Notes: a model not told the origin generated them from the sequence alone. A stretch of 64,000 bases of DNA from Terriglobia bacterium (GCA_965223005.1 CBDCVK010000010.1:1019656-1083655); one strand, 5' to 3'. Counted from the stretch's first letter, positions 1 through 54,802 are shown. Program-made: numbers and translations.

Positions 1-737
1 CTGTGGCTGGCGATGACCGGGGCCTGCGTCACCTCCAAGGCGTCGTAGAAGGTTCGGTCCGAGACGTGGGATATGTCCACCATCATGCCCAGCCGGTTCA
101 TGCGAGCGACGATGGCGCGGCCCTTCTCGTTCAACCCGCGCTTGCGGCCGGCATCGCCGGAGGAGCCGGCCCAGGAGGTGGAAATGGACCAGGTGAGGGT
201 CATGTAGCGGACACCCAGCCGGTAGAAAACGTCGAGCACGCGCGGCTTGTCTTCGATGGCGTGTCCGCCTTCAACACCCATCAACGCGGCCAGCTTGCCG
301 GCGGCATGAACGCGGCGGATGTCGTCCGCCGTGCGCGCCAGCTCCAGCTCGCTCGAGTGGCGCTCCACCTGGTCCAGCACGGCGTCAATTTGCGTCAGGG
401 CCTGCCGCAAGTAATGCGGCTTGTAGCTGGGGCGCACCCAGATGGAAAAAAAGACGGCATCCAGGCCACCCTCGCGCATGCGGGGCAGGTCCAGATGGCC
501 GTCCGGGTCGCGGAGGCTCAGGTCCAGGTTCTCTTCCACCAGGCGCTTCGTGGTGTCGGCGTGGGTGTCAATGACGATTGCGCGGCGGTGAATCTGTCGC
601 GCCTGGCTCAGGCTGTCCCTCGGTTGCGGATTGCGGACTTCAGGTTTCGAATTTCGCGTTTCGGATTCCGGATCTGCTGGGCGGCAGGCCAGAACAATGA
701 GCGCCAGGAGGAATAAAAGGACAACGGACCGAATCAT
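1..737 (-). CDS. Membrane dipeptidase (peptidase M19, renal-dipeptidase family) lipoprotein; 3' end runs off the window
   Basis: Hand translation of the minus strand from ATG (rc of 735-737) gives MIRSVVLLFLLALIVLAC (lipobox) ... AIVIDTHADT ... VGVEGGHAIED ... MTLTW ... VDISHVSDRTFYDALE, which is typical M19. It has no stop inside the window, so it is absent from the ORF track. The listed plus-strand ORF 3..716 is its antisense shadow. Confidence 0.7.
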   Translation of the reverse strand, partial: MIRSVVLLFLLALIVLACRPADPESETRNSKPEVRNPQPRDSLSQARQIHRRAIVIDTHADTTKRLVEENLDLSLRDPDGHLDLPRMREGGLDAVFFSIWVRPSYKPHYLRQALTQIDAVLDQVERHSSELELARTADDIRRVHAAGKLAALMGVEGGHAIEDKPRVLDVFYRLGVRYMTLTWSISTSWAGSSGDAGRKRGLNEKGRAIVARMNRLGMMVDISHVSDRTFYDALEVTQAPVIASH

Positions 738-1000
738 TCGGTGAACTCCACCTGCTGCCCGAGCTCCTGGATCAGGGCGTCGGCCACTTCTTCGGCGGTG
801 CCCGGCCGTTCCTGTTTCGGCGTCCAGTTCCACTGATTCAGATAGTCGTCGGTGCCGGCCAAGCCTTCCCTCATGGCGATCTTGTCAATCTCTTCCTGGA
901 ACCGGCCGGGCATGGGCCGCGACAGAGTTCTCTGGCCCTCGGCGGACACCTTCACCTGCGCCGGGATATGCTTCCAGTAGAGGATCTGGTATTTCGCCAT
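734..1000 (-). CDS. Small conserved hypothetical protein (88 aa), last gene before the dipeptidase
   Basis: ORF MAKYQILYWKHIPAQVKV... overlaps the dipeptidase start by ATGA-type coupling and follows the pterin-binding methyltransferase. Family not recognised. Confidence 0.45.
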   Translation of the reverse strand: MAKYQILYWKHIPAQVKVSAEGQRTLSRPMPGRFQEEIDKIAMREGLAGTDDYLNQWNWTPKQERPGTAEEVADALIQELGQQVEFTE

Positions 1001-1008
1001 ATGTTTCC

Positions 1009-2061
1009 CTACCCAGCGGTGACGGGCTCCAGTTCCCCCTTGCGGTAGGCGCGGAGGAAGTTCTTACAGTTCCGGTCGTGCCCTGTCAGCATGTCCTGGG
1101 CCAGCTGATAGGGCCGGGAACTCTTGTCTGCCGAGAACACCCGGTTCAGATCGTTGCCCACGGGGTCCACGATGCCGCTGTCGGCGCCTGCTTCCACGGA
1201 GAGATTGATGAACGCCTCGTTGATCAACCGGCGGCAAGGGAGGCCGAACGACACGTTGCTCAAGCCGCCCGTCAGGTGAATCTTCTCGCCGTACTTCTCA
1301 CGCAGCTGGCGGATCGCCTCCAGGTAATGGTTTCCGAACTGACCGTCCACCGAGATGGGGAAGACCAGGCCGTCCACATAAAGGTCCTCAATGGGGAGGC
1401 TCTTAGCCAGGGCGGTATCGATCACCTGGGAAGCGTTGGCCACTCGCTCCTCGGTGTTTTGGGGCATGCCGCTGGAGCCAGAGGCCGTGACGATCACCGA
1501 CAGGTTGCGCTCCCGGGCCAGGTCCAGTGCCTCCAGCCGTTCCAGCGAGGCGGAGTTCAGCATGGCCCGGCCTGTGCTCCCCGAGCAGGCCTGAATGCCG
1601 GCGCGAATGGTGTCCAGATTGGAGGAATCAATCGAGAGCGGCACCGGCGCCAGCGGTTCGATGGCGCGCACCAGCCAGCGCATCGCTTCGAACTGTTTGT
1701 CCGGGTAGAGGGAGACCTCGTCCACGTTCAAGTCCAGGAAGTCCGCGCCGCCTTTGAGCTGCCGCGTCATCAGCGCGCGCAGGTACTCCATTCCTTCGGT
1801 GGCGGCGGGCTCGCCGCCCGACATGGCCGCCCTCACCGCGATGGCCACGTGCTTGACGCGCCCCTCCTCATAGTCCTGCTGGCTCTTGACCTGTTCCGGG
1901 ATGATCAGGTAGCGGGTTTCTCCGCTCGCGCTGGTGTAGCGGACCGCCTCCTCACCGCTGGGAGTGGTGGTGACTAGCTTGCCAGCGCGGCGCAAGACGC
2001 GGGTCGTGTGGATGTTTTCCCCGATGACAACGAATTCCTTGTTCAAGTCTTGAGGTTTCAT
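1009..2061 (-). CDS. Pterin-binding methyltransferase, likely methyl-THF:corrinoid methyltransferase (MT2; MtvA/CmuB/AcsE-like)
   Basis: 350 aa. FVVIGENIH near the N-terminus and a GLSNVSFG motif are typical of the DHPS-like pterin-binding fold (MetH/AcsE/MtrH). 4-nt overlap with the upstream MTHFR gene. Confidence 0.8.
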   Translation of the reverse strand: MKPQDLNKEFVVIGENIHTTRVLRRAGKLVTTTPSGEEAVRYTSASGETRYLIIPEQVKSQQDYEEGRVKHVAIAVRAAMSGGEPAATEGMEYLRALMTRQLKGGADFLDLNVDEVSLYPDKQFEAMRWLVRAIEPLAPVPLSIDSSNLDTIRAGIQACSGSTGRAMLNSASLERLEALDLARERNLSVIVTASGSSGMPQNTEERVANASQVIDTALAKSLPIEDLYVDGLVFPISVDGQFGNHYLEAIRQLREKYGEKIHLTGGLSNVSFGLPCRRLINEAFINLSVEAGADSGIVDPVGNDLNRVFSADKSSRPYQLAQDMLTGHDRNCKNFLRAYRKGELEPVTAG

Positions 2062-3605
2062 TGTTCCTTTGGTTTCTTAGGGGCGTTATGGTCCCGCTCG
2101 AGGAAGGCATTGGCCCAGGCGCTGGTGCCTCGCAGCGCTCCATTGCGGAAGACCACGGGCCGGTCGAGCATCTGCTCCTCCTCGCCATAGGCCTTCAGAC
2201 GCTGGTAGGCGCGGCTCCAGATGCACTCCTTCTCCCCGACTTCGCACAGGCCCTGCCGCGTTCCTCCGCAGGGACCGTTGCGTTGGTTCTTCACGCATTG
2301 CGACTCGGGACAGAGGTAGGCGATGTCCGGGAGGGAGCAGTCGCCGCAGTCCTGACAGTCGAAGGCTAGGATTTTGAATGCGTGCTCGGCCGTGTGCAGC
2401 GCCTTGCGTATCCGCGGCGATCCCTCCACCGACTGGTAGAGCGCCTTTCCCGCCCGGAACCCCGAGGAGCCCTGCTCGAATAGCTCCCCGTGCACCAGGC
2501 GGTTGAGCCGGTAGGAGAGCGGCGCGCCGGCCGGCGAGGCTTTCGAGCGTAAGTACTCGCGGTTGACCTCCGAGGAACTGAGGCCCGTCTTTGGATCGGG
2601 CTCAAAGTAGTAGAACTCGTCAGGCTGGGCGAAACGAATCTGGCGGGCAAACTCCTTCCAGTCATTGTCGCCGAAGCTGTCCCAGATCTGGAGGATCCGC
2701 TCGTAGTCTTCGAACCGCAGATGCCCCCCCAGGTAGACCCCCCGATAGCCGAGTCCCCGGGCGATGGCGCACTGCTTGGCGGCGAACTCCAGGAAGAATG
2801 CCTTGCCCTTGTCGGGCGAGGCTCCCTGCTCCTCGGCCAGCCCCAGCAGTTCATCGGTGATCACGGCGCCGGGAATCCGGCCAGCGTGAAAGAAGCGTGA
2901 GGCGGGGGTGCTGAGGACGTAGACATTGCACAGAACGGGCACCTGGAGTCCCTTCAGCGCCATGTAGCGCAGTAACTCATCCTGCTTTCGCGCGTCGTAG
3001 CCGATCTGGTTGATGATGAAGCGGGCGCCGGCCTCGACCTTCTTGGCCAGCTTAAAGTACTGCGGCATCACCTCGCCCTCATAGCGCTTGTGGTTGTTCA
3101 CCACCGCGCCGAGGAAAAATTTGGTCCCCTCCATGTGGGAGTACATTTGCAGCAAACCGACCGAATCCGTGTCAAAGACAGGGGCGGCCTGGCCCTGGTA
3201 GCCGGTCACCGGGTAGTCACCGGACAGCGTCAGCACATTGTGGAAGCCTTCGCTCGCCAACTTCCAGCCGCGGCTCTCCAGCGCGTTGCGGTTCCAATCC
3301 TTGCAAGAGAGGTGAATGATGACCTCCTGGCCGCGGGAGATCAGGTCGGTGCCCAAGGTGTCAGCGCTAAGCATCGCGCTCCCGCCCGGGTTGTCCGTGA
3401 TGCTGAGGGCATGGAAGCGCGGATGCTCGGCCAGCAACCGCGCCATTTCCAGAACGCGGCGGCCGCTGCGCTCGATGATCAGACCGCGGGAAGTCACCAG
3501 CTCGACCACAATGAGGAAGCTGGAGGTTTCCTCCATCTGGTAGCGGAACGTTCGCTTGCTCCAGGCACCGGAAGTTGGCCGCGTGGGCCCGGGAGATGCG
3601 CTCAC
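2058..3605 (-). CDS. metF: Methylenetetrahydrofolate reductase (MetF-like) fused to a MetV-like Cys-rich C-terminal domain
   Basis: 515 aa. The N-terminal ~300 aa resemble the MTHFR TIM barrel. The C-terminus carries CQDCGDCS...CPESQC...GPCGG...C, a cluster typical of the MTHFR C-terminal (MetV) zinc-ribbon domain. ATGA overlaps with both neighbours. Confidence 0.75.
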   Translation of the reverse strand: MSASPGPTRPTSGAWSKRTFRYQMEETSSFLIVVELVTSRGLIIERSGRRVLEMARLLAEHPRFHALSITDNPGGSAMLSADTLGTDLISRGQEVIIHLSCKDWNRNALESRGWKLASEGFHNVLTLSGDYPVTGYQGQAAPVFDTDSVGLLQMYSHMEGTKFFLGAVVNNHKRYEGEVMPQYFKLAKKVEAGARFIINQIGYDARKQDELLRYMALKGLQVPVLCNVYVLSTPASRFFHAGRIPGAVITDELLGLAEEQGASPDKGKAFFLEFAAKQCAIARGLGYRGVYLGGHLRFEDYERILQIWDSFGDNDWKEFARQIRFAQPDEFYYFEPDPKTGLSSSEVNREYLRSKASPAGAPLSYRLNRLVHGELFEQGSSGFRAGKALYQSVEGSPRIRKALHTAEHAFKILAFDCQDCGDCSLPDIAYLCPESQCVKNQRNGPCGGTRQGLCEVGEKECIWSRAYQRLKAYGEEEQMLDRPVVFRNGALRGTSAWANAFLERDHNAPKKPKEQ

Positions 3606-5233
3606 GGCTTCCCTCCGAACGCCGCAGGCATGGGCTTAAACTGGCAGCCCTCGACAAAGACGTCAAAAAAGTCGGGGGTCGTTTCCAGCTCAATGTGCTC
3701 GATGCCTTTGACCAGTTCCTCGATGGCGCGGCGCTTGCGCCGCGACAGCAGGATCTGCCGCGCTCCGGCCACCGCGGCGTTGCCTACCTTGACGACGCGA
3801 TCCTCGGGCACCGGCGCCAGGAACCCGATCTCGACGGCATGGCCCACGTTGACGTAATTCGCGAAACCACCGGCCAGGTACAGCCGGCTGATGTCAGCCG
3901 GACGCACACCGAACCGGCGCAAGGCGATGTACTGGCCGCAGTAATTGGCGGCTTTGGCCTGCGCCAGGTTGCTGGCGTCTTGCCGCGAGAAGGTGATGCC
4001 CTGCTCGGGCACGATGGGGAGCTCGTACTGCTTCTTGGCAAAGACGCCTTTCGGCGTCATCAGCCCATGCCGGCGCAGCTCGGCGAGTAGATCGATCAGA
4101 CCCGAGCCGCAGATTCCCTTCGGCGCGGCGTTGCCGATGGTCTGGTAGTCCCAGGTATTGCCGCTCAGCCGCAGCGCCTCGATGGCTCCGTCGCCGGCGG
4201 TCATGCCGTACTTGATGAGCCCACCCTCAAAGGCTGGACCCGCCGGGCAGGAAGTGGCCAAAAGCCGGCCGGCATGGCCCACCACTACCTCTGTATTGGT
4301 GCCCACATCCACCAACATGACCGGGTCGCGTTGGGAGGCGATATCGATCGCGACCAGGTCGGCGAGGGTGTCCGCCCCCACGTGGCTGGCCACCAGGGGA
4401 GCCCCCACGACACGGGCCTTGGGATGCGTCAGCAGGCCCAGGCGGTGAGCCAGCTCGGTCAGCGCCGTCGTTGTGCGCTGCCCGGCCAGGTATTCGTGCT
4501 CGACCAGCGACTTGTAGGGTTTCTGGCCGATGGACTGCACGTCCAGATTGAAGAACAGGTCGCGCATCGTAGAGTTGCCGACCAGAATGGCCTCGTAAAT
4601 CTCATGGCGCACGATTCCCAGTGTCTGACACATCGCCCGCAGCTCGTAGTTGACTGCCGTGATCACACTCTTGTGGAGTTCACCCTGGAATGGGCCGGAA
4701 TCGTAGGAGATGCGGTGCATGATGTCGCTGCCGCCGAAGCGCTGAGGGTTCTCCAGCGAGCCCAGGCAGGCGACCGCGCCCGTCTCCAGGTCCACGAGCT
4801 CGACAACAATGGTGGTGGTACCCAGGTCAATGGCCAGGCCGTAAAGGTGGCCGCGGTAGTGGTCAACCACCTCGCCGTCGTAGAGGACTTTGTCGCCGGC
4901 GCGGGTGACCAACGGATCCAGTTCAACTGCGGTGGCGGCGGAACTGGTCAGAATCTGCGGGCGGCGGCGGAGCAGTTCGAACGCAACGTCAATGTCGGGA
5001 TCTTCGACCACCGCCTGGCAGGCCAGCCGGTAGTTCTCCCGCAGGAACTCTTCCGCCTCGGTGCGCGGACATAAGGCCTCCACGCCGCGCTTGATTTCCA
5101 CGATGCATTCGTGACAGATGCCGCTGCGGCCGCAGGAGGTGGGCACCTGCACGGCGAGATCGTCGGCATAGTCGAAAACGGTGCGGCCCCGCTCCAGGCT
5201 GCAGCGGCTGCTGTCATAGGAGATGTGGGCCAT
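3602..5233 (-). CDS. RACo-type reductive activator of corrinoid proteins (N-terminal 2Fe-2S ferredoxin domain plus ASKHA ATPase)
   Basis: 543 aa. N-terminus has SCGRSGICHEC...C (plant-type ferredoxin Cys pattern); the body has the ASKHA motif LAIDLGTTT. ATG at rc 5231-5233. Confidence 0.8.
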   Translation of the reverse strand: MAHISYDSSRCSLERGRTVFDYADDLAVQVPTSCGRSGICHECIVEIKRGVEALCPRTEAEEFLRENYRLACQAVVEDPDIDVAFELLRRRPQILTSSAATAVELDPLVTRAGDKVLYDGEVVDHYRGHLYGLAIDLGTTTIVVELVDLETGAVACLGSLENPQRFGGSDIMHRISYDSGPFQGELHKSVITAVNYELRAMCQTLGIVRHEIYEAILVGNSTMRDLFFNLDVQSIGQKPYKSLVEHEYLAGQRTTTALTELAHRLGLLTHPKARVVGAPLVASHVGADTLADLVAIDIASQRDPVMLVDVGTNTEVVVGHAGRLLATSCPAGPAFEGGLIKYGMTAGDGAIEALRLSGNTWDYQTIGNAAPKGICGSGLIDLLAELRRHGLMTPKGVFAKKQYELPIVPEQGITFSRQDASNLAQAKAANYCGQYIALRRFGVRPADISRLYLAGGFANYVNVGHAVEIGFLAPVPEDRVVKVGNAAVAGARQILLSRRKRRAIEELVKGIEHIELETTPDFFDVFVEGCQFKPMPAAFGGKP

Positions 5234-5237
5234 CTTT

Positions 5238-5273
5238 GCTCAGGAGGTTCCCGGGGCTCAGGAGGTTCCCGGG
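5238..5273. repeat. Perfect 18-nt tandem duplication gctcaggaggttcccggg x2 immediately upstream of the RACo start codon
   Basis: 5238-5255 equals 5256-5273. Lies in the 41-nt spacer between the small Cys ORF and RACo. Confidence 0.9.
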
Positions 5274-5274
5274 G

Positions 5275-5517
5275 TCAGGCAGTTTCCCACGCCTTTCGGT
5301 AATCCAGCTTGTCGTCGCTGGCGCACACGGGCAGCTCCCCAGCCTGCTTGGGCTTGCGCTTGTTGCGGCAGCCAAACTGCGCCGTGCATTGGTCCAGGCG
5401 GTTCTTGTAAGGGCAACGCCGGAGAGACAGCTCGTCGGCGTGCGCCGCGATCCCCGTCAGGATTTCGGTGAGCCGGTCCAGGCGTTTTTGGTACTCGTGT
5501 TGGTCGATTTTCTCCAT
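5275..5517 (-). CDS. Small Cys-containing hypothetical protein (80 aa) inside the corrinoid operon
   Basis: The ORF exactly fills the 300-nt gap between the corrinoid-protein gene and RACo. It has 4 Cys; no family recognised. Confidence 0.35.
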   Translation of the reverse strand: MEKIDQHEYQKRLDRLTEILTGIAAHADELSLRRCPYKNRLDQCTAQFGCRNKRKPKQAGELPVCASDDKLDYRKAWETA

Positions 5518-5533
5518 GCCGTCGCCCTAGAGT

Positions 5534-6283
5534 CTAGACCGGCACCCCCATCAGCCGCTTGGCTAGCGCGACGCAGGCCATCGCGTCCTTGCCGTAACCG
5601 TCGGCTCCCATGTCGTCGGCAAAGTCCTGTGTGACAGGCGCGCCGCCGACCATGATTTTCACGTTGTCCCGCAGGTCGGCGTCAATAAAGGCTTCGATCG
5701 TCTTGCCCATGTTGGGCATGGTGGTGGTCAGCAGCGCGGACATCCCCATCAGGGGGGCCTCGTGCTCCTCGACGGCCTCAATGAACCGGTCCGCCGAGGT
5801 GTCCACTCCCAGGTCAATCACCACAAAGCCGGTGCCTCGCAACATCATGATGCACAGGTTCTTGCCGATGTCGTGCAGGTCTCCTTTGACGGTGCCCATG
5901 ACCACCTTGGCAATGGGCTTAACGCCGGAGGCCGACAGGATGGGCTCAATGTAGGCCATGCCCGCCTTCATTGCCCGAGCGCAGGCCAGAACTTCCGGCA
6001 CAAAGATGAAGTTCTCCCGGAACTTGATGCCGACAATCCCCATGCCGGCAATCAAGCCGTCGTCCATCACCTCCAGCGCCACGGTCCCTGCCTCCAGCTC
6101 CTCTTTGGTCAGTTGATCCACCGTGCCGTTGTCACCGTCAATCAGCGCCGCCGCGATGGTCTGCATTTTCGGCCTGACCTTCGCGAAGGTGTCAATCATG
6201 CGCTGCCGCTCTTCGGGACGCTCGATGTACTCTTCGATCTCCTGCCGGATGAAGTCGTTGGAAATGTCGCTGAGCTCCGCCAT
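5534..6283 (-). CDS. Cobalamin-binding corrinoid protein (MtvC/MtaC/CmuA-C-domain-like)
   Basis: 249 aa with an N-terminal helical cap and a Rossmann-like B12-binding domain containing the DxHxxG motif as GDLHDIGKN. Confidence 0.85.
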   Translation of the reverse strand: MAELSDISNDFIRQEIEEYIERPEERQRMIDTFAKVRPKMQTIAAALIDGDNGTVDQLTKEELEAGTVALEVMDDGLIAGMGIVGIKFRENFIFVPEVLACARAMKAGMAYIEPILSASGVKPIAKVVMGTVKGDLHDIGKNLCIMMLRGTGFVVIDLGVDTSADRFIEAVEEHEAPLMGMSALLTTTMPNMGKTIEAFIDADLRDNVKIMVGGAPVTQDFADDMGADGYGKDAMACVALAKRLMGVPV

Positions 6284-6304
6284 AGTGTGTTCCTAAGCCC
6301 GTTC

Positions 6305-7342
6305 CTAGTTGGCCGAGGCGTGCTGCCGGTGCCACTCGCGCACGGCCCCGGGAATCTCCTTAAGGTTCTCGACCGTAGTCTGCAGCGGGATGGCGCACTC
6401 CGGGCCCACCAACTGCACGCCCGCGTCCAGGTTCTTCCAAACCTCTTGCCGGACTTCCTCAGGGCCCCTCGAATACAGGATCTCCGGATTGTTGATGTTT
6501 CCCACCAGCGAGATGCGGTTCTTCATGATCGCCATCGATTCGGCGGGGTCGTTCTTGGAATCGTAGTGAAACGCCGCGAATCCGGTCTGCGCAATGTACT
6601 CCATGCGGTCCAGCGTGCGGCCACAGATGTGCATAATCAGCGGAATCGGAATCCGCTCGGCAAACTCGATGTGCATGTCGCGCAGGTAGCGCCGGTAGTA
6701 CTCGCCGCTGACCAGGTCGCCGGTGGCGTGGTCGGGCAGAGTCAGGGCATCGGCGCCCGCTTCGATCTGGGCCAGGCCAAAGTCAATGGTGACCTGCTTG
6801 AGTGCCTCCAGGCACTGCATGGTCTTGCCCGGATCATCCAGCGACAGCAGCAGAAACGGCTCCACGCCGAAGCAGTGGTAGGCCAGCGACCAGGGTCCCA
6901 TCGTCTTGCCGACGATCGCCACCTCGTCGCCGAACTCTCGGCGCAGAATCTTGATGGCCTGGATCACGCACTGCATGTCGGGATGCTTCAGCACGTCCGC
7001 GGGAATCCGGATGTCTTCCGGCTTCTCGAAGATCGGCTCGCGCATTTTCACCGTCGGCCAGTTGTCTTTCTGCTCCCACTGGATCTTGCAGCCCAGTGCG
7101 GAAGACTCCTGAATGATGCTGAAGACCGGCATGATGGTGTCGAAGCCGAACTCGGTGTGTCCGGTGGCGGCCAGCCGCGCCATCAGTTCCGGCTTGCGGT
7201 TGGCGTCCGGGAAGGGTGCGTCCACCAGATCCATCATCTCCACCGTGGCCACCGAGGTGGGGTTGCAGACCGGCGTGCGGTCCACCGGCTCGCGGCGCAA
7301 GGCGGCCAGCACGCGCTGGCGACTCGTCATTGGTCCGACCAT
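6305..7342 (-). CDS. Uroporphyrinogen-decarboxylase-family methyltransferase (MtaA/MtvB/CmuA-N-like), probably the substrate:corrinoid methyltransferase MT1
   Basis: 345 aa. Length and overall similarity fit the URO-D superfamily methyltransferases that pair with corrinoid proteins. Confidence 0.75.
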   Translation of the reverse strand: MVGPMTSRQRVLAALRREPVDRTPVCNPTSVATVEMMDLVDAPFPDANRKPELMARLAATGHTEFGFDTIMPVFSIIQESSALGCKIQWEQKDNWPTVKMREPIFEKPEDIRIPADVLKHPDMQCVIQAIKILRREFGDEVAIVGKTMGPWSLAYHCFGVEPFLLLSLDDPGKTMQCLEALKQVTIDFGLAQIEAGADALTLPDHATGDLVSGEYYRRYLRDMHIEFAERIPIPLIMHICGRTLDRMEYIAQTGFAAFHYDSKNDPAESMAIMKNRISLVGNINNPEILYSRGPEEVRQEVWKNLDAGVQLVGPECAIPLQTTVENLKEIPGAVREWHRQHASAN

Positions 7343-7363
7343 CTCCTTCTCCTCTCTTTCCCT

Positions 7364-8044
7364 CTACGCTTTTTGCTGGCTCGGCGCGACCAACTGGCCG
7401 CGGGAGGCAGCCGCCTCTTCTTCGCGCAACACCGCGCGCAGGTTCAAGGTGCGAACCAGCAACAACCCGACCAGCGCATCGTGGGTCTGCCCGCAGGGGA
7501 ATGCCACCCGGTCGGCGCTGCCTTCCACCGGCGACATCTCGGCCAGCTTCCGGAATCCGGCTGCGATGGCTTCCACCCGCTTAGACTTGTCTTCCTCGGG
7601 CCCGTCTGCCGTTACCTGGTAGACCCCCGCCCCCAGGCTCGCCACGACGATGTTTCGGCCCGATCGTTTGTCAAAGGCGCGGAGCGGCTTCGGTTCGAGC
7701 GCCGGGGTGGAGGGCAGCTTGCATGCCTCCAGAAAACCACGCTTGGCCCCAGCCTGGTGCGCCGAGCCACAGGAGAAGCGGAGCCGAACGTCCGTCCGCT
7801 CCGCCCCCGCCAGGTTCTCGAGCGCCCGGGCCACAAATTCGATTCGTTCGCGAACGCCTTCCAGCCGGCTGTAGCTGTGCACCAAGTATTCCGGCTGGTG
7901 ACCGCCATCCTGGCGATAGAGAGCAACGGTGATGTCCTGGCAATGGGGATCCATCGGGACCAGTTCGACGCGTTTACCCAGATCCAGCGTTAGGCCCATA
8001 GTCAGGATCCTCCTGGCAGAGAGTGCCGGCCGGCAGGGAGTCAA
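7364..8044 (-). CDS. Hypothetical protein leading the corrinoid-methyltransferase operon (true start may be the internal Met at 7999)
   Basis: 226-aa ORF with no recognisable domain. It sits directly upstream of the URO-D-family gene with a 21-nt gap. Confidence 0.4.
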   Translation of the reverse strand: MTPCRPALSARRILTMGLTLDLGKRVELVPMDPHCQDITVALYRQDGGHQPEYLVHSYSRLEGVRERIEFVARALENLAGAERTDVRLRFSCGSAHQAGAKRGFLEACKLPSTPALEPKPLRAFDKRSGRNIVVASLGAGVYQVTADGPEEDKSKRVEAIAAGFRKLAEMSPVEGSADRVAFPCGQTHDALVGLLLVRTLNLRAVLREEEAAASRGQLVAPSQQKA

Positions 8045-8152
8045 GCCGGAAGGGAATCAGGTTTGACATCCTGCCTGCTTGTCTGCTAAGCTGACACTTC
8101 AGTATACCCCAGTTGGCAGCAAGCTGTAAAGCCCCAGGAAGGTGTCAAGCCG

Positions 8153-8971
8153 ATGGTTGAGTCTCTCCAGCCAGTCGCTCGCAGGTTGCTCAGCGAGGGT
8201 ATCGTCGAGCAGATCACCGCTATGATTGCGCGCAACGTGTTCCAGCCGGGCGACCGCCTCCCCTCCGAGAAGGAGCTCTGCCGGCAGTTCCGGGTGGGCC
8301 GGACCTCGGTTCGGGAAGCACTGCGGTCGCTCTCGGTGATGGGGATCCTGGAATCGCACGCGGGCGAAGGAACCTTCGTTTGCCTCAACCCGGGCCGCTA
8401 TCTGGAGCGGGCCTTTCAGTGGGGCCTGCTGCTGGACCGCAAGGTAGTCGAGGACCTGGTGGAAACCCGGTTGATGCTGGAGTCGCAAACGGCCGATCTG
8501 GCTGCCCAGAAGGCAACGAAGAAAGACCTGAGCGACATCGAAGTGGCCCTTCAGGGCATGGAGAAATCGCTGGCCGATCCGGAGAAATACCTGGAAAGTG
8601 ACCTGCGGTTCCACCTGGGCATCGCCCGGGCGACGCAGAACTCGATCCTACACAACCTGCTGACCACCATCCGGGGCTATCTGCAGGCCTTTATCCGGGA
8701 GACCCTGGCGTCTTCCCCGGCCAGCGACTCGACCCGGCGAGCCGCTGTTTCCCTCGCCGAGCACAAGAAAATCTTGCGAGCCCTCAAGAAAGGTGACCCC
8801 GAGGAAGCGCGGCGGGCCATGACCGAGCACATCGTTTCCTCGCGAGACGATCTGAGGAAGCATCTGTCGAACCGTCCCCATGCGCGAGACCGCGACGTTG
8901 TTAGTCTTCTGCCCCGACCAGAAGGGGCTCGTGGCCAGGATTTCCGGGTTCATCTTTCGCCACGGCGGTAA
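8153..8971 (+). CDS. GntR-family transcriptional regulator (FadR/FCD subfamily)
   Basis: N-terminal wHTH (PSEKELCRQFRVGRTSVREALRSL) plus an all-helical FCD domain. Divergent from the methyltransferase operon. RBS aggaagg upstream. The 3' tail overlaps purU by 92 nt. Confidence 0.8.
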   Translation: MVESLQPVARRLLSEGIVEQITAMIARNVFQPGDRLPSEKELCRQFRVGRTSVREALRSLSVMGILESHAGEGTFVCLNPGRYLERAFQWGLLLDRKVVEDLVETRLMLESQTADLAAQKATKKDLSDIEVALQGMEKSLADPEKYLESDLRFHLGIARATQNSILHNLLTTIRGYLQAFIRETLASSPASDSTRRAAVSLAEHKKILRALKKGDPEEARRAMTEHIVSSRDDLRKHLSNRPHARDRDVVSLLPRPEGARGQDFRVHLSPRR

Positions 8972-9734
8972 CATTCTGGACGCCGACCAGCACACGGATC
9001 TCGAGACCGGGGTGTTTCTGGCGCGGATGGAATGGGATCTGGAGGGGTTCGAGATCCCGCGCGCGCAAATCGCCGCGCGTTTTCAGCCGCTGGCCCAAGA
9101 ACACCAGATACAGTTCGAGGTCCACTTCAGCGATGACGCTCCGAAACTCGCGATCTTCGCCTCCGGGATGCTGCATTGCCTCCAGGATCTGCTGCTCCGG
9201 CACCGGGCCGGCGAGTTCCAGGCCGAGATCGCAATGGTCCTCAGCAATCATCTGGAGGCCAATGCGGTGGCGCAGGAGTTCGGAATCCCGTTCCTTCACT
9301 TCCCCATTACCGCGGCCAGCAAGAAGGAGCAGGAGGCCAGGGAGATCGACGAGCTGCGGGCCAGAGGAATTGACCTGATCGTGCTGGCCCGCTATATGCA
9401 GATTCTGAGCGAGGATTTTGTCGCCGCCTTTCACAACCGGATCATCAATATCCACCATTCCTTTCTTCCGGCCTTTGCGAGGGGCCAAGCCTACCACCAG
9501 GCTTTCCAACGTGGGGTGAAGCTGATCGGAGCCACCTCTCACTACGTGACAATGGATCTGGATGAAGGTCCGATCATTGACCAGGAGGTCGTGCGCGTGA
9601 GCCATCGTGACTCAGTCCAGGATCTGATTCGCAAGGGGAAGGATCTGGAACGAGTGGTTCTGGCCCGCGCAGTGCGCCTGCACCTGGCTCATCGGGTGTT
9701 GACTTACGGGAACAAGACCGTTGTTTTCGACTAA
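8880..9734 (+). CDS. purU: Formyltetrahydrofolate deformylase
   Basis: 284 aa. N-terminal ACT domain (LLVFCPDQKGLVARIS, cf. E. coli PurU ICPDQKGLIARIT) plus a formyl-transferase domain (HHSFLPAF, SHYVT). Confidence 0.85.
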   Translation: MRETATLLVFCPDQKGLVARISGFIFRHGGNILDADQHTDLETGVFLARMEWDLEGFEIPRAQIAARFQPLAQEHQIQFEVHFSDDAPKLAIFASGMLHCLQDLLLRHRAGEFQAEIAMVLSNHLEANAVAQEFGIPFLHFPITAASKKEQEAREIDELRARGIDLIVLARYMQILSEDFVAAFHNRIINIHHSFLPAFARGQAYHQAFQRGVKLIGATSHYVTMDLDEGPIIDQEVVRVSHRDSVQDLIRKGKDLERVVLARAVRLHLAHRVLTYGNKTVVFD

Positions 9735-15933: not shown

Positions 15934-17055
15934 TTGTCCGGGTTCAAAAGGAGCAGCGAACCGTTGAGCCAGGAAAAGCCAAGTACGTATCTGGAGATTC
16001 TCGAGCGCTTCCCCGCACAGACGGTGTTGGTGGTTGGCGATCTGGTGGCCGACGAGTTCGTGCTGGGCGAGATTTCCCGGGTTTCGCGGGAAGCCGCAGT
16101 GCTCATTTTGAAGCACCGGCAGACGCAGATTCTGCCTGGTGGCGGCGCCAACGCGGCGTATAACCTGGCCGATCTCGGGGCCAAGGTGATTCCAGTGGGG
16201 GTGGTTGGCGACGACGACGCCGGGCGGGCGTTGCTGGAGTGTTTTCGCAAGCGCCGCGTGGAAACACGCGGCGTCGTGGTGGCGCGCGAATTGACCACCA
16301 CCACCAAGAGCCGCGTTCTAGCTGGTACAGTGCACGGCAGCCGCCAGCAGGTAGTGAGGATTGACCGCGAGCCCGCGCAGCCGGCCTCCCCGGCCCGGCG
16401 GGCGGAGGTCCAGCGGCGCGCACTGCGCCTGGGGCGCCGGGCAGACGCCGCTCTGGTCTCCGACTACGGCTACGGCGCCACCTCTCCGGAACTGGCCGGT
16501 GCGCTGGGCGCTGCCCTCAATGGCCGTCCGGTGACGATTGATTCGCGCTTCGACCTGCTGAAGTACGCCGGAGCCACCGCGGCCACGCCGAATGAGCCGG
16601 AACTGGAAGAGGCGTTTCACGCGCGCATCGGCGCCGACACGCACAAGCTGGAGCACACGGCGCGAAGCGTGCTGCGCCGGATGCGGCTCGAGGCCCTGCT
16701 GGTTACTCGCGGGCGGCACGGAATGGTGCTGTTTGAGCCGCGCCGCCGCCCGGTGTACATCCCCGTCTGGGGCTCTGATGAGGTTGCGGACGTGACCGGG
16801 GCCGGCGACACGGTGATTGCCACCTTCACCCTGGCCCTGGCCGCCGGCGCCAGCTTTGAGCAGGCGGCGCGGCTGGCGAACTTTGCGGGCGGCATTGTGG
16901 TCATGAAGCGCGGCACGGCCACCGCAACCTTGGAGGAACTTCGAGAGGCAGTCACGAGCAGGGAAGCGCTCGGCCCGGCAGTGCCGGACAGGGGCCGGAC
17001 AGGGGCCGGGCAAGGGCGGGGCAAGGGCCGGGCAAGGGGAGATGAACACAGCTGA
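15934..17055 (+). CDS. hldA: D-glycero-beta-D-manno-heptose-7-phosphate kinase (RfaE domain I) as a stand-alone gene
   Basis: PfkB/ribokinase fold (ADVTGAGDTVIAT). The C-terminal ~25 aa are a Gly/Arg-rich tail encoded by 12-nt tandem repeats. Confidence 0.8.
   Translation: MSGFKRSSEPLSQEKPSTYLEILERFPAQTVLVVGDLVADEFVLGEISRVSREAAVLILKHRQTQILPGGGANAAYNLADLGAKVIPVGVVGDDDAGRALLECFRKRRVETRGVVVARELTTTTKSRVLAGTVHGSRQQVVRIDREPAQPASPARRAEVQRRALRLGRRADAALVSDYGYGATSPELAGALGAALNGRPVTIDSRFDLLKYAGATAATPNEPELEEAFHARIGADTHKLEHTARSVLRRMRLEALLVTRGRHGMVLFEPRRRPVYIPVWGSDEVADVTGAGDTVIATFTLALAAGASFEQAARLANFAGGIVVMKRGTATATLEELREAVTSREALGPAVPDRGRTGAGQGRGKGRARGDEHS
16984..17040. repeat. 12-nt tandem repeat (~5 copies, degenerate) at the hldA/hldC junction
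   Basis: ggccggacaggg / gccggacagggg / ccgggcaagggc / ggggcaagggcc / gggcaagggg. Confidence 0.7.
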
Positions 17056-17536
17056 CAAATTCGTGGGCCGCGTGCGAGCGCGCGAGCTTGCGGACCAGGC
17101 GCGGGGCGACGGGCGCCGCCTGGTGCTGGCCAACGGCTGCTTTGACCTGCTGCACGCGGGCCATGTGCGTTACCTGCAGGGCGCGCGAGCCTGCGGCGAC
17201 CTGCTGGTAGTGGGCATTAACTCCGACCGAAGCGTGCGCGCTCTGAAGGGCGACGGGCGCCCGCTGATGGACCAGCAAGCGCGCGCTCGCATGGTGGCCG
17301 CCCTGTCGGCGGTGGACTGGGTCGTCATCTTCGACGAGCCAGACGTGACCGCGCTGCTGAGGGAACTGCGCCCGCAGGTCCACGCCAAAGGCACCGACTA
17401 CACCTCCGAGACCGTGCCCGAGCGGGAGACGATGCGCGCTCTGGGCGGCGAGGTCGCCATTGTCGGCGACGCCAAGCACCACTCGACCCGCGACCTGATC
17501 AGCCGCATCGTGAAGGCGCAAGACAGTACGCAGTAG
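17042..17536 (+). CDS. hldC: D-glycero-beta-D-manno-heptose-1-phosphate adenylyltransferase (RfaE domain II) as a stand-alone gene
   Basis: 164 aa with the cytidylyltransferase signature NGCFDLLHAGHVRYL. Confidence 0.85.
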   Translation: MNTADKFVGRVRARELADQARGDGRRLVLANGCFDLLHAGHVRYLQGARACGDLLVVGINSDRSVRALKGDGRPLMDQQARARMVAALSAVDWVVIFDEPDVTALLRELRPQVHAKGTDYTSETVPERETMRALGGEVAIVGDAKHHSTRDLISRIVKAQDSTQ

Positions 17537-17608
17537 GCGGTAGGCAGGTGGGAGGCTAACTGTGCGGCTGGTACCTGAAACCTGGAACCTGACACCTGGC
17601 TTGGTTCG

Positions 17609-18661
17609 ATGCAAAGGATCTTGATTCTGCGCCTGGGCTCGATGGGCGACATTATTCACACGCTGCCGGCAGTGGCCACGCTGAAGCGCGGCTTCCCCGA
17701 TGCGGAGATTGATTGGGTGGTGGAAGGGCACTGGGCGCCGCTGCTTGAGCGCAATCCGTATCTGGCCCAACTGCACCGGCTGGAAACACGCTCCTGGAGG
17801 CGGCGGCTGGCCGCAGCCGGCACTTGGCGCGCCTTGCTGGGGAGCGTCAGCCGGCTCCGGCGCCGGGGCTACGATTGCGCGCTGGACTTTCAGGGCCTTG
17901 TCAAGTCGGCCGTAGTGGGGCGCCTGAGCGGCGCGGTGTCGGTGGTGGGGTTCGGCCGTGCTGAATTGCGCGAACGGGCCGCCGCCCTGTTCTACACAGC
18001 GCAGGCGAGTCCCCCCGCAGACGGGCGTGCTGCCCACGTGGTGGAGCGGAACCTGGCGCTGGCTGCCGCGGTGGGAGCCAAAGAACCGGTGATGGAGTTT
18101 TGCTGTACGCCCGCCCCGGAAGCCGTGGCAAGCATGCGGGCGGCGACGGCCGGCTCCGCCGGCCTGCCCAGCCTATCCCACGTGCCACGCTACGCGATCG
18201 TGAGCCCTTCGGCCGGTTGGGCCGCCAAGCGCTGGCCGGAGGAAGCCTATGCAGGCCTGGTGTTACGCCTCCGCCGGGAGCTGAGCTTGCGGGTAGTGAT
18301 TCATTGTGGCCCCGGCGACGAGCTGATCGCCGAACGAGTGGCGGAACTTGCCGCCGACGCCCGACCCCTGCTGCTGCGCCCTTCGCTGGGCGAATTGATG
18401 GCTTTGGTGCGCGAGGCGGCGCTGCTGGTGGCGGGCGACACCGGTCCGTTGCATCTGGCCGCTGCCTGCGGCACGCCAGTGGTGGCGGTCTTCGGCCCCA
18501 CTGACCCGGCGCGCAACGGCCCCTTTTCTACAGCCAGCCGCGTGGTCCGGGCCGAGGACGCGTCGACCACCTACTCGCGGGCCGCCGACCGGCAAGCCAT
18601 TCGCAGTGTCACGGTCGAGCAGGTGTTTCGTGCCGCGGACGAGCTGCTGCAGGCCCGATGA
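17609..18661 (+). CDS. GT9 heptosyltransferase (WaaC-like)
   Basis: 350 aa GT9. LILRLGSMGDIIHTLPA N-terminus as in heptosyltransferase I. Confidence 0.7.
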   Translation: MQRILILRLGSMGDIIHTLPAVATLKRGFPDAEIDWVVEGHWAPLLERNPYLAQLHRLETRSWRRRLAAAGTWRALLGSVSRLRRRGYDCALDFQGLVKSAVVGRLSGAVSVVGFGRAELRERAAALFYTAQASPPADGRAAHVVERNLALAAAVGAKEPVMEFCCTPAPEAVASMRAATAGSAGLPSLSHVPRYAIVSPSAGWAAKRWPEEAYAGLVLRLRRELSLRVVIHCGPGDELIAERVAELAADARPLLLRPSLGELMALVREAALLVAGDTGPLHLAAACGTPVVAVFGPTDPARNGPFSTASRVVRAEDASTTYSRAADRQAIRSVTVEQVFRAADELLQAR

Positions 18662-40736: not shown

Positions 40737-42131
40737 ATGGCACTCTTGAAACCTGACCCAACGTTTTACCCTTCCCCCAAGATGGCGATGCAGGCGCCAG
40801 CTGAAAAGCTGGCCTATCTGGCCCTGCTCAATCCGAAGCACAAAGGCCAGCACGACGCTATCGCGGTGGTGGATGTCGACCCTAAATCATCTAGCTATAG
40901 TCAGGTAGTTGGCCAGGTGGAGATGCCCAAAGCAGGCGATGAGCTTCACCACTTCGGCTGGAACGCCTGCAGCGCCTGCCTGTCCCCCTACGCGCCGCAT
41001 GCCCATCTGGAACGGCGCTACCTCGTCGTTCCGGGCCTTCGCTCCTCCCGGATTCACGTCATTGACACGAAGCCTAACCCCCGGAAGCCGAAGATCGTCA
41101 AAGTGATTGAGCCGGAGACATTGGCGAAGCGCACGGGCTACAGCCGGCCGCACACGGTTCACTGTGGTCCGTGGGGTATCTACGTCAGCGCGCTCGGCTC
41201 ACCGACCGGCGAAGGGCCCGGCGGTGTCTTCATGATGGACCAGGACAACTTCGAGGTGCTGGGAAAGTGGGAGTTGGACCGTGGCCCCCAGTACCTGGCC
41301 TATGATTTCTGGTGGCATCTGGGCTACGACGCCATGGTCACCAGTGAGTGGGGCACGCCGAACATGATCGAACAGGGTGTGAACCCAGAGATCTTGCTCA
41401 AAGGTGGTTATGGCCACAAGCTCCACATCTTTGACTTAAACAAGCGGCGTCATCTGCAGGAGCTGGATTTGGGCGCCGAGTATCAGATGGCCTTGGAGCT
41501 TCGACCGGCCCACGACCCCACCAAAGCTTACGGTTTTCTGGGCGTGGTGGTCTCGCTCAAGGATCTTTCAGCGTCAATCTGGTTGTGGAACCTGGAGAAC
41601 GGCAATTGGGGCGTGCGCAAGGTCATCGAGATCCCGGCCGAGCCAGCCGATCCGGACAAGCTGCCGCCGATGCTGAAAGACTTCAAGGCGGTGCCGCCGT
41701 TGGTGACCGACATCGATCTCTCTCTGGACGATCGCTTTCTCTACGTTTCCTGCTGGGGGACGGGTGAGTTCATCCAGTACGACGTGACGGATCCGTTCAA
41801 CCCCAAGAAGACCGGCTCGGTGCATCTGGGTGGCATCGTGCGGCACGCAGCGCACCCCAAGAAGCCCAAGCAGGCGCTGAATGGCGGGCCGCAGATGGTC
41901 GAAGTGAGTCGCGATGGCCGGCGGATCTACTTCACCAACTCTCTCTATGCTTCATGGGACGAGCAGTTCTATCCGGAAGGCATCCGAAGCTGGATGGTGA
42001 AGCTGAATGCCAAGCCGGAGGGTGGCATGGAGATTGACCCGCGCTTCTTCCTGGAGTTCAAGGAGTTGCGCAGCCATCAGGTCCGCCTGGAAGGCGGCGA
42101 CGCTTCCTCGGACTCTTACTGCTACCCATGA
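40737..42131 (+). CDS. Selenium-binding protein 56 / methanethiol oxidase homologue
   Basis: 464 aa. Collinear with human SELENBP1 along its whole length (VVDVDPKS, DELHHFGWNACSAC, FWWH, DIDLSLDDRFLYVSCW, NGGPQM, YFTNSLY...WD.QFYP). No signal peptide, so predicted cytoplasmic. Confidence 0.85.
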   Translation: MALLKPDPTFYPSPKMAMQAPAEKLAYLALLNPKHKGQHDAIAVVDVDPKSSSYSQVVGQVEMPKAGDELHHFGWNACSACLSPYAPHAHLERRYLVVPGLRSSRIHVIDTKPNPRKPKIVKVIEPETLAKRTGYSRPHTVHCGPWGIYVSALGSPTGEGPGGVFMMDQDNFEVLGKWELDRGPQYLAYDFWWHLGYDAMVTSEWGTPNMIEQGVNPEILLKGGYGHKLHIFDLNKRRHLQELDLGAEYQMALELRPAHDPTKAYGFLGVVVSLKDLSASIWLWNLENGNWGVRKVIEIPAEPADPDKLPPMLKDFKAVPPLVTDIDLSLDDRFLYVSCWGTGEFIQYDVTDPFNPKKTGSVHLGGIVRHAAHPKKPKQALNGGPQMVEVSRDGRRIYFTNSLYASWDEQFYPEGIRSWMVKLNAKPEGGMEIDPRFFLEFKELRSHQVRLEGGDASSDSYCYP

Positions 42132-52375: not shown

Positions 52376-52412
52376 CGGCCGGAGGGGCCGGCGGGGCTAA
52401 GGAGGACCAGCG

Positions 52413-54157
<1,745 letters not shown>

Positions 54158-54158
<1 letters not shown>

Positions 54159-54802
54159 TGCCGGTTGCTTCTGAAACTGTGGAGAAAGTTCCGGGCGTCG
54201 GGGGACGTGGCCCGCGCGACGGCGGCTTCGGTGATGAAGGAGGCCGTGCCGGTCCCCAACCCAACCGGCGCGTCTACCGCACGGGTATCTGGATTGCCCT
54301 GGCGCCCATCATGATGATGTTTGTCGCCTTTTCCAGCGCCTACATCGTGCGCCGCGGCCTCGGCAGGGACTGGCAACCTCTGGAGCTGCCTGCCATCCTG
54401 TGGCTGAATACGGCGCTGCTGGCAGCCAGCAGCCTGGCCCTGGAGCGCGCTCGCGATTGCTTGAACCGCGGGCTGCGAGACGGGTTTAGCCGCTGGTGGT
54501 CGGCGACCACAGCCCTAGGCGTGGCGTTCCTGCTCGGCCAACTGGGTGCATGGTGGCAACTGACGGATCGTGGCGTCTATCTGGCCAGTAATCCCAGCAG
54601 CTCGTTCTTTTACTTGTTGACGGCCACTCACGGCCTGCACCTACTGGGCGGGGAAGTGGCGCTGTTGTATGTGGCCTTCCAGGCGGCGCGCTCGGGAGTG
54701 GGTCCGGCCCCGCGCACCGCGGTGGACGTGAGCGCCGTCTACTGGCATTTCCTGGGCGGCTTGTGGGTCTTCATCTTTTTGCTGCTTCTGGTTTGGAGGT
54801 AG
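54158..54802 (+). CDS. Heme-copper oxidase subunit III-family protein (first of two)
   Basis: 214 aa multi-TM. TGATG overlap with coxA. Subunit-III-like helices (YWHFLGGLWVFIF). Confidence 0.65.

Follow-up and report, generated by a model that had tools for sequence, protein, structure and literature searches.

A corrinoid methyltransferase cluster with an MtaA/CmuA-family enzyme and orphan partner proteins in a Terriglobia bacterium and at related loci elsewhere

Which methylated compounds a microbe can use, be they osmolytes, methyl halides, methylated sulfur or methoxy-aromatics, depends on its corrinoid methyltransferase systems. A cluster of such genes in a 64,000-nucleotide stretch of DNA from a Terriglobia bacterium (GCA_965223005.1, CBDCVK010000010.1:1019656-1083655; hereafter the window) raises the question of which methyl donor it serves, and in which direction the methyl group flows. 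An earlier reading of the same DNA (the original prediction) took the cluster for a complete module leading from methyl groups to formate, and favoured methoxylated aromatics as their source. We lean moderately towards an inducible, catabolic, corrinoid-dependent methyl-X:tetrahydrofolate (THF) methyltransferase system; most likely, B12-dependent machinery takes a methyl group off a small molecule and hands it to folate.

The operon and its donor-side methyltransferase

Eight co-oriented genes span positions 734-7999 of the minus strand, as delimited by open reading frame (ORF) listing and translation, and the gene calls of the public record, a 3.13-Mb metagenomic contig (ENA ERZ25072076), agree. 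They encode, in order, an orphan protein of 211 residues (unk211), a methyltransferase of the URO-D family, a corrinoid protein, a four-cysteine protein of 80 residues (s80), a RACo-type activase, a fused MetF-MetV, a pterin-binding methyltransferase and a PF13769 protein of 88 residues; there are thus three small accessory proteins, where the original prediction counted two of unknown function. Domain calls on the window proteins were made with Pfam and NCBIfam, and these hidden Markov model searches reproduced all the domains that had been named for the eight genes. The gene logic described earlier also stands: three corrinoid methyltransferase components deliver methyl groups to THF, RACo provides the repair, and the genome encodes an aa3 oxidase; the oxidase genes reported for the same window are real (COX2, COX1 and COX3, 51587-54802, plus strand, by domain matches). 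The claim of tight coupling through four-nucleotide ATGA overlaps is true of two junctions, those of MetF-MetV with the pterin-binding methyltransferase and of the PF13769 gene with a following dipeptidase gene, but not of the others: a third overlap, in which the MetF-MetV start meets the RACo stop, reads GTGA, and the remaining operon junctions are spacers of 8-41 nucleotides, with the URO-D and corrinoid genes 21 nucleotides apart.

The URO-D protein (6305-7342, minus strand, 345 residues; PF01208, E=3e-66) exceeds the cutoff of the MtaA/CmuA model TIGR01463 (256.7 bits vs 235.4) and that of PRK06252 (253.9 bits vs 244). It falls short of the MtaA and MtbA equivalogs (MtaA_Meth, 234.8 vs 400; MtbA, 200.7 vs 600), and a score of 68.9 bits on the HemE model (TIGR01464, cutoff 302.95) sets it apart from the true decarboxylase HemE. 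Its best solved relative is MtaA of M. mazei (PDB 4ay7; E=2e-54, 32% identity), and a PDB sequence search at E<=0.001 matched only MtaA and true decarboxylases. The zinc motif is kept, MHICG (H238, C240) and GPECA (C316) aligning to HICG and PGCG of 4ay7, and the H-x-C...C ligands are invariant in the homolog alignment. We regard the protein as a putative substrate:Co(I) methyltransferase. The automated names that the JGI gives to its homologs are split between mtaA and methylthiol:CoM methyltransferase.

Members of the MtaA-type family such as MtsA and MtpA can also bring methyl groups from thioethers onto Co(I). Identity among MtaA, MtbA and MtsA themselves is put at no more than about 30% (Kountz & Balskus, PMC10418091). 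The O-demethylases OdmB and VdmB are reportedly about 17% identical to an MtaA-like clostridial protein (PMC10418091), and a 2026 paper on the Cdm system groups MtvB, OdmB, VdmB, MtoB and CdmB, with CmuA on an early, separate branch (PMC13222342). This branch split, together with the MtaA/CmuA cutoff passed and the higher identity to MtaA, suggests a place for the window enzyme among the thiol-type enzymes, apart from the MT1s of aryl O-demethylases; likeness to MtvB, as first proposed, is not its best description. The methanogen enzymes MtaA, MtbA, MtsA and MtpA are its closest sequence relatives and have the same TIM barrel and H-x-C...C zinc site, but they serve coenzyme M as methyl acceptor where the window system would serve THF, and the aerobic bacterial host, which lacks a methanogenesis context, and the orphan partner are peculiar to the latter. 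Type 1 mlp clusters (Kountz & Balskus preprint), for which a methyl-sulfur or methyl-selenium role was proposed, also combine MtaA-like and corrinoid proteins with a Ram/RACE activase; unlike the window cluster, they hold two or three distinct Mlps and no THF methyltransferase, and are confined to obligate anaerobes. An assignment of the window cluster to this type was rejected, since it has a single URO-D gene, a pterin-binding methyltransferase, MetF-MetV and different hosts.

The MtaA/CmuA cutoff would also admit a methyl-halide (chloromethane or bromomethane) dehalogenase, in which a split CmuA and a CmuB-like pterin enzyme would work with MetF and PurU as in Methylorubrum extorquens CM4. 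Like the Cmu system, the cluster sits in an aerobic host and has an MtaA/CmuA-family methyltransferase followed by a corrinoid module, a pterin MT2 and the metF/purU logic of pCMU01, where purU and folD adjoin cmuA. An alignment with CmuA runs colinearly through both the URO-D gene and the corrinoid gene (window 7336-5558, 26% identity, E=1.6e-37), and CmuA has the zinc motif in common with the URO-D protein. Methyl halides, too, occur in soils and sponges, habitats of the phyla that carry the cluster. On the other side, CmuA is one fused protein, 24-26% identical to the URO-D protein, whereas the window parts are separate genes, and its methyltransferase domain is 24% identical, against 32% for MtaA. 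(A tblastn search with the URO-D protein against plasmids at E<=1e-10 did not recover cmuA, which was reached through the corrinoid protein and then compared directly.) The part of the Cmu neighbourhood that was compared has folD and cob genes adjacent and no RACo, whereas the window cluster has RACo and orphan proteins and no FolD; cmuC and cobalamin-synthesis genes are likewise absent nearby, nothing in Cmu systems corresponds to the orphan partner, and the ligand of an FCD-type regulator would more likely be an organic acid than a gas. We consider a methyl-halide dehalogenase quite unlikely.

Apparent fusions of the URO-D and corrinoid genes were met in some of the related loci described below (numbered from L001, the window locus). 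Long corrinoid ORFs in L038 and L061 were rejected as out-of-frame artefacts of ORF calling. In a Poribacteria locus (L047:9980-11510), the C-terminus of URO-D runs, apparently in frame, into the mid-part of the corrinoid protein and bypasses its cap region, at the very end of a 6.7-Mb contig; this junction probably arose in assembly and is hardly a fusion of the CmuA kind, and we do not trust it.

The folate-side core and the accessory proteins

The corrinoid methyl carrier (5534-6283, minus strand, 249 residues) scores above the cutoffs of PF02310 (B12-binding) and PF02607 (B12-binding_2), and its translation contains GDLHDIG (the DxHxxG motif), SALL (SxL) and VGGA (GG); its best PDB match is the Moorella corrinoid protein 1y80 (E=5e-62). 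The RACo/RamA-type reductive activase (3602-5233, minus strand, 543 residues) has Fer2 (PF00111), Raco_middle (PF17651) and RACo_C_ter (PF14574; the ASKHA ATPase domain), all above cutoff, with a CX5CX2C...C pattern and the motifs DLGTT and DVGTNTE, and scores 283.6 bits on the AcsV-type model, below its cutoff of 800. MetF and MetV form one polypeptide (2058-3605, minus strand, 515 residues; PF02219, 45.7 bits, cutoff 24; PF12225/DUF5981, 92.1 bits, cutoff 23) with a Cys-rich C-terminal domain, a methylene-THF reductase that here would oxidise methyl-THF to methylene-THF. The pterin-binding methyltransferase (1009-2061, minus strand, 350 residues), an MT2 of the MtgD/CmuB-like kind, matches PF00809 (E=2.5e-18), and its top NCBIfam model is NF005719 (methyl-THF:corrinoid methyltransferase), with 191.7 bits below a cutoff of 259. 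Its PDB matches are headed by 4o0q, 4o1e and 4o1f (E=6e-36), the MT2 of a Desulfitobacterium O-demethylase, followed by AcsE/MeTr and the folate domains of MetH; FolP is absent among them at E<=1e-5. Of these structures, 4O1E and 4O1F serve as the methyl-THF-bound (CH3-H4F) and THF-bound (H4F) methyltransferase templates (PMC13222342). The doubts that the original prediction had raised against itself, that the URO-D protein might be HemE, the pterin-binding protein FolP, or the corrinoid protein devoid of DxHxxG, can thus be laid aside.

These matches bear on the reading first favoured, an O-demethylase for methoxylated aromatics or other methyl ethers, similar to Mtv or Odm, which would pass lignin methyl groups to THF. 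The acetogen Mtv/Odm/Vdm and Cdm systems have the same four-component layout (a URO-D-superfamily MT1, a corrinoid protein, a pterin MT2 and an activating enzyme), the best solved relatives of the window MT2 and corrinoid protein are found there, and the host is a soil acidobacterium. The acetogens, however, are strict anaerobes, and their operons lack MetF-MetV, PF13769 and GntR and employ an MT1 from another branch of the URO-D family: OdmB, VdmB, MtvB and CdmB lie apart from the MtaA/CmuA subfamily (PMC10418091, PMC13222342), and the PDB search described above returned none but MtaA and true decarboxylases. No aromatic-ring catabolic genes are linked to the cluster, and many of its carriers are marine or sponge-associated (Poribacteria, Latescibacterota), for which lignin is no obvious substrate. 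Given the subfamily of the URO-D protein and the distance of OdmB and VdmB from MtaA-like proteins, methoxy-aromatic demethylation is no longer the leading reading, and we hold it to be very unlikely.

A nearer parallel to the core is offered by glycine-betaine systems. Plasmid p1 of Paracoccus methylovorus carries an MttB-family methyltransferase gene beside a row encoding a B12 protein, DUF1638, MetV, MetF, a methyl-THF methyltransferase and an ASKHA protein, and plasmid pAZKH of Azoarcus sp. KH32C carries a divergent purU beside genes for a corrinoid protein, DUF1638, PF13769, MetV, MetF, a protein named 'DHPS' and an ASKHA protein, amid betaine transporter genes. MtgC, MtgD, MetF2 and the RamA-like activase of the MtgBCD core are all matched in the window cluster, the identities to Paracoccus being 44% for the corrinoid protein (MtgC-type), 33% for the methyl-THF methyltransferase, 32% for RACo, 28% for MetF and 35% for MetV; PF13769 and the divergent purU are arranged as in Azoarcus, and the hosts respire oxygen in both cases. 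Ruegeria pomeroyi requires MtgC and MtgD both to demethylate betaine aerobically and to make methionine, and it induces MetF2 (strongly), RamA and DUF1638 on N-osmolytes (PMC12478193). A ferredoxin-DUF4445 (RamA-like) protein is needed aerobically in Phaeobacter, and core components have been shown genetically to work aerobically in both genera (PMC12478193, PMC5764234). The folate-side core (corrinoid protein, PF13769, MetV/MetF, methyltransferase, RACo and purU) is thus already known from aerobic proteobacteria, and the view that such a system is uncommon in aerobes is outdated, given the Azoarcus and Paracoccus islands, the Ruegeria and Phaeobacter genetics and the many stretches with the present cluster reported below.

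The differences lie elsewhere. Where the betaine systems have the MttB-family donor enzyme MtgB, DUF1638, separate MetV and MetF and a GlxA regulator, the window cluster has an MtaA/CmuA-family URO-D protein with an orphan partner, a four-Cys module that is often fused to RACo, MetF and MetV fused in that order, and a GntR/FCD regulator, and it lacks the betaine transporters. FolD, MttB-family, DUF1638 and homocysteine methyltransferase genes are all absent from the 64-kb window (MttB and DUF1638 by tblastn with Paracoccus proteins, E<=1e-3). What is new is the donor side, a highly conserved URO-D enzyme with its orphan partner, and the four-Cys activase module, with two orphan protein families among them. 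As the betaine islands couple the same core to an MttB donor enzyme, the URO-D protein and unk211 may, by analogy, be the variable, donor-specific part.

The 211-residue orphan protein is encoded by the first gene of the operon (7364-7999, minus strand), which always lies directly upstream of the URO-D gene. It has no match in Pfam, NCBIfam or PHROGs, each of its 638 homologs is annotated 'hypothetical', and a profile search of 1.84 billion protein representatives with the family brought up just 282 members, either equal in size or fragmentary, and no link to any larger family. Its alignment contains two copies of R-x-x-F-x-C-G-x-x-H, with C77, H81, C169 and H173 invariant, and these two CGxxH motifs suggest a Cys2His2 metal site. 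An AlphaFold2 (AF2) model from a 59-sequence alignment (pLDDT 89.9, pTM 0.84; the single-sequence model, at pLDDT 39.6, was useless) predicts a tandem duplicated bbb-a-bb-a module (alpha/beta), each CGxxH standing at a helix N-terminus, with no solved structural relative. In eight Poribacteria loci the orphan and URO-D genes stay paired while the rest of the cluster is located elsewhere, and we infer a direct partnership of the two proteins. A 345-residue match that joins the orphan N-part to the URO-D N-part is probably a frameshifted fragment and was not used as evidence of fusion.

The 80-residue protein (5275-5517, minus strand), also without a family match in Pfam, NCBIfam and PHROGs, has four invariant cysteines in the signature RCPYxxR..CTAxFGCRNxR..C..DDxxDYRxAW. 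In 23 loci (L046:11878-13890, L070, L020, L027 and 19 others) this module precedes RACo in a single reading frame, free of stops, as an N-terminal fusion; the fused proteins have about 632-670 residues in Poribacteria, with longer ORF calls elsewhere. Because of these fusions (Rosetta-stone evidence), the protein is best regarded, at the level of sequence, as a module of the reductive activase. The small ORFs of 80 and 211 residues are real genes, and they add two protein families without an assigned function, one of which has a confidently predicted fold and no solved relative. In the spacer between the 80-residue gene and RACo lies a perfect tandem duplication of 18 nucleotides (CCCCGGGAACCTCCTGAG, twice; 5239-5274, minus strand); in L002, the 95%-identical relative, the same spacer is 18 nucleotides shorter (RACo start at 12092 vs 12110 in L001), as would be the case if only one copy were present.

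The PF13769 protein ('Virulence_fact'; 734-1000, minus strand, E=7e-15) has homologs that adjoin corrinoid, DUF1638 and MetV genes in the cultured aerobes Azoarcus, Terrarubrum, Gemmatirosa and Sinorhizobium, and appears to keep company repeatedly with the corrinoid methyltransferase cores of aerobic bacteria; PHROGs gave no match for it. On a plasmid of Terrarubrum flagellatum (L085:9001-11283), a 'virulence factor' of 760 residues has PF13769 fused to a much larger protein, beside corrinoid and DUF1638 genes.

Spread across phyla and control of the operon

A scan of one genome per species (185,579 species genomes) with the URO-D homolog alignment confirmed at least 568 stretches. The best 80 of these, all from metagenome-assembled genomes (MAGs), make up the related loci, in which the window proteins were placed by tblastn; frequencies are given out of all 80 loci, out of the 72 with enough upstream sequence or out of the 64 with enough downstream sequence. 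These best 80 loci come from Acidobacteriota, Latescibacterota, Poribacteria, Gemmatimonadota, Acidimicrobiia, Lentisphaeria, Planctomycetota and Verrucomicrobiota, at least six phyla over which URO-D identity is 78-95%, and the closest match among those listed is a Terriglobia (Acidobacteriota) MAG with a URO-D protein 95% identical. The conserved order is GntR (divergent), then orphan-211, URO-D, corrinoid protein, four-Cys module, RACo, MetF-MetV (not in every locus), pterin-binding methyltransferase and PF13769. In the library searched, no paper describes this exact cluster; the nearest mentions are surveys that note 'mtaA' annotations among Acidobacteriota MAGs.

Median identity is 81% for URO-D, the query family of the 80 loci, and 82% for the corrinoid protein, present in 59 of 64. 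The orphan protein is present in 79 of 80 (median identity 53%), the four-Cys module in 58 of 64 (65%), RACo in 58 of 64 (68%), MetF-MetV in 47 of 64 (66%), the pterin-binding methyltransferase in 53 of 64 (61%), PF13769 in 49 of 64 (62%) and the divergent GntR in 56 of 72 (58%). The high identity of the URO-D and corrinoid proteins across phyla implies lateral spread together with strong constraint. A methanogen-type, MtaA-like enzyme has in effect been joined to an oxygen-tolerant proteobacterial corrinoid/THF core, and the combination has spread almost unchanged through little-studied phyla. Two copies of the cluster, with equal identities to the window proteins, lie about 60 kb apart on one contig of an Acidobacteriota MAG (L022 and L023, CBDFLD010000014.1); they may represent a recent duplication or an assembly repeat. 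Among the other carriers, L026 belongs to a MAG of the species Gemmatimonas phototrophica.

The divergent pair of a GntR/FadR regulator and PurU, a formyl-THF deformylase, was correctly called. PurU (8880-9734, plus strand) scores 377.7 bits on TIGR00655 (cutoff 285.95) and is 44% identical to the PurU of pCMU01; no more than 4 of 72 loci have it nearby, which marks it as a lineage-specific addition outside the conserved cluster. With PurU so rarely linked and no FolD in the window, the description of the module as complete from methyl to formate goes too far. The GntR frame and that of full-length PurU overlap by 92 nucleotides (8880-8971, plus strand); position 2 of the PurU model aligns at residue 6 of the 284-residue form, and the public gene call starts PurU at 8931, with an overlap of 41 nucleotides.

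A link that was overlooked earlier is the one to methionine synthesis. A stand-alone homocysteine S-methyltransferase gene (PF02574, E=2e-53) is embedded in 22 of the 80 loci, between the pterin-binding methyltransferase and PF13769 or just after PF13769 (L010, at 16879-17940, L012, L014, L019, L023, L024, L026, L027, L033, L034, L037, L038, L042, L050-L052, L057, L059, L065, L072, L074 and L081). By gene content, the cluster thus appears to be connected with the making of methionine in three groups, Latescibacterota, Poribacteria and Gemmatimonadota.

The regulator (8153-8971, plus strand; PF00392 and PF07729) has NanR, LldR and PdhR as its nearest NCBIfam models, all below cutoff, and its FCD domain points to a carboxylate effector. 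The promoter and operator region of the operon (8061-8130, minus strand), as read from motifs and related loci, has a -35 box TTTACA (8124-8130), a -10 box TATACT (8101-8106), a split palindrome TGTCA-GCTTAGCA-GACA (8078-8097, minus strand), which is also found in L002, and a TGTCAAA box (8061-8070). Related loci share the TTTACA box, followed some 41 nucleotides downstream by the palindrome T[GT]GTC[AT]GAC[CA]A. The palindrome stands upstream of the operon in 34 of 76 loci in its strict form and in 53 of 76 as GTCNGAC, and a TGTCAA[GA] box in 52 of 76. As the strict motif has only 74 copies in 1.49 Mb of loci, both strands counted, nearly all of them lie at the operator position. The GT-N-AC shape is typical of the operators of FadR-type GntR proteins. 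In the window and in L002, the half-sites of the conserved operator (TTGTCAGACAA or TGGTCAGACCA in other loci) are apparently parted by an 8-nucleotide insertion, which may alter repression in this lineage. An Rfam search of the window returned no riboswitch, of the S-adenosylmethionine (SAM), B12 or any other type. The divergent protein is presumed to be the repressor of the operon, which we read as a repressor-controlled, inducible unit; conserved operator and regulator together give a simple handle for ligand screening.

Direction of methyl flow, substrate and neighbouring genes

In the mechanism that we propose, the MtaA/CmuA-family zinc enzyme and its 211-residue partner would transfer a methyl group from a small donor to Co(I) of the corrinoid protein, the pterin-binding methyltransferase would pass it on to THF, and the fused MetF-MetV would oxidise the resulting methyl-THF. 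Methylene-THF would then enter general C1 metabolism, with PurU aiding the release of formate in this lineage and FolD necessarily encoded elsewhere. RACo and its four-Cys module would use ATP and a low-potential electron to bring Co(II) back to Co(I), a repair that should be essential in an oxygen-respiring host, and the FCD-type GntR protein would keep the operon repressed at the promoter-adjacent palindrome until its ligand, probably a carboxylic acid, appears. The catabolic direction is suggested by the analogy with the betaine islands, by the repressor-type regulator and by the lineage-specific purU, as well as by the distribution of the cluster, which is conserved across phyla yet carried by few species, the stretches confirmed among 185,579 species genomes numbering at least 568.

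The opposite direction deserves attention. In an anabolic or bidirectional split methionine synthase, or a thiol methylase, MetF-MetV would supply methyl-THF, the methyl group would move to the corrinoid protein, and the MtaA-like enzyme, perhaps with unk211, would methylate homocysteine or another thiol. Several observations that weigh against the catabolic system fall on this side: MtaA, the nearest solved relative of the URO-D protein, physiologically transfers methyl groups from methyl-cobamide to a thiol (coenzyme M), so that the URO-D enzyme could be acceptor-side; MetF normally makes methyl-THF; PF02574 genes stand inside the cluster or at its edge in more than a quarter of the loci; and in both Phaeobacter and Ruegeria the corrinoid/pterin/RamA core has a second role as a split methionine synthase (PMC5764234, PMC12478193). 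Further points against our preference are the rare linkage of PurU and the missing FolD, the operator palindrome split by 8 nucleotides in this genome, the lack of a conserved transporter in the cluster that would point to the substrate, and the fact that direction and substrate are both read from context.

Against the anabolic alternative, loci with a dedicated homocysteine methyltransferase keep both URO-D and unk211, so that the URO-D enzyme is not simply its replacement. A GntR/FCD repressor gene with an operator faces the operon, riboswitches for SAM or B12 are absent, PurU accompanies the cluster in this lineage, and the cluster, rare among the species genomes scanned, looks accessory rather than housekeeping. 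We judge a purely anabolic or bidirectional system unlikely, and continue to favour the catabolic one; the PF02574 genes nevertheless suggest that the corrinoid core may also feed methionine synthesis, by analogy with Ruegeria.

As to the substrate of the catabolic system, our tentative choice, a possibility rather than an expectation, is a methyl-thioether such as 3-methylthiopropionate (MMPA) or a related methylthio-carboxylate, dimethyl sulfide (DMS) or methanethiol, because MtaA, MtsA and MtpA carry out Zn-thiolate/cobalamin methyl transfer and regulators of this type sense carboxylates. The JGI names of the homologs offer a weak clue. Another is an SBP56-family protein (40737-42131, plus strand, 464 residues; PF05694, E=6e-196), the family of the methanethiol oxidase MtoX, although on the NCBIfam MtoX model it scores 101 bits against a cutoff of 650. 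A place for its gene in a methyl-sulfur neighbourhood was rejected, as its neighbours encode SDR, VWA and unknown proteins, and its distance of 32 kb from the cluster, in this unrelated setting, counts against the choice, as does the retention of the zinc motif in CmuA, which deprives that motif of any force as proof of a thiol substrate.

Physiological work led to the proposal of a cobalamin-dependent aerobic methyltransferase for DMS or MMPA (Visscher & Taylor 1993; Boden 2010), and the aerobic DMS methyltransferase was still unidentified in a 2019 study of Methylophaga (PMC6548844). One might speculate that a new cobalamin-dependent aerobic demethylase of methylated sulfur is built from two subunits, the MtaA-like enzyme and the orphan protein with its Cys2His2 site, converting MMPA to 3-mercaptopropionate or DMS to methanethiol with transfer of the methyl group to THF. 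We find this somewhat unlikely as it stands, and the cluster is offered as a testable candidate for the activity class. Were it true, the enzyme would belong to abundant uncultured phyla of soil, freshwater, marine and sponge-associated habitats and add to the global cycles of organic sulfur and C1 compounds a route that had gone unrecognised. More generally, the substrate could reveal a sink for an environmentally important methylated compound, candidates being the aerobic DMS/MMPA methyltransferase and methyl-halide degradation of a non-cmu type.

Some genes accompany the cluster only locally. In the window it is followed by a ninth, translationally coupled gene for an M19 dipeptidase with a lipoprotein-type signal peptide, the ATGA of which overlaps the PF13769 stop (1-737, minus strand, incomplete at the window start; complete in L001:16606-17865). 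We rejected it as a component of the system, since besides the window locus it is linked only in L002 (1 of 80 related loci), and it is probably a hitch-hiker of the operon. Eight Latescibacterota and Gemmatimonadota loci have an APH-family kinase upstream (for example L016:5913-6917), the N-terminal part of which weakly resembles S-methyl-5-thioribose kinase (61.8 bits vs a cutoff of 275). In Poribacteria (for example L020:14533-15207 and L014:15596-16663), a PhyH-family dioxygenase gene stands between RACo and MetF-MetV, and an Ldh_2 gene (malate/sulfolactate dehydrogenase-like) follows PF13769. The kinase, PhyH and Ldh_2 neighbours may be clues to the substrate, or they may reflect only the synteny of their lineages.

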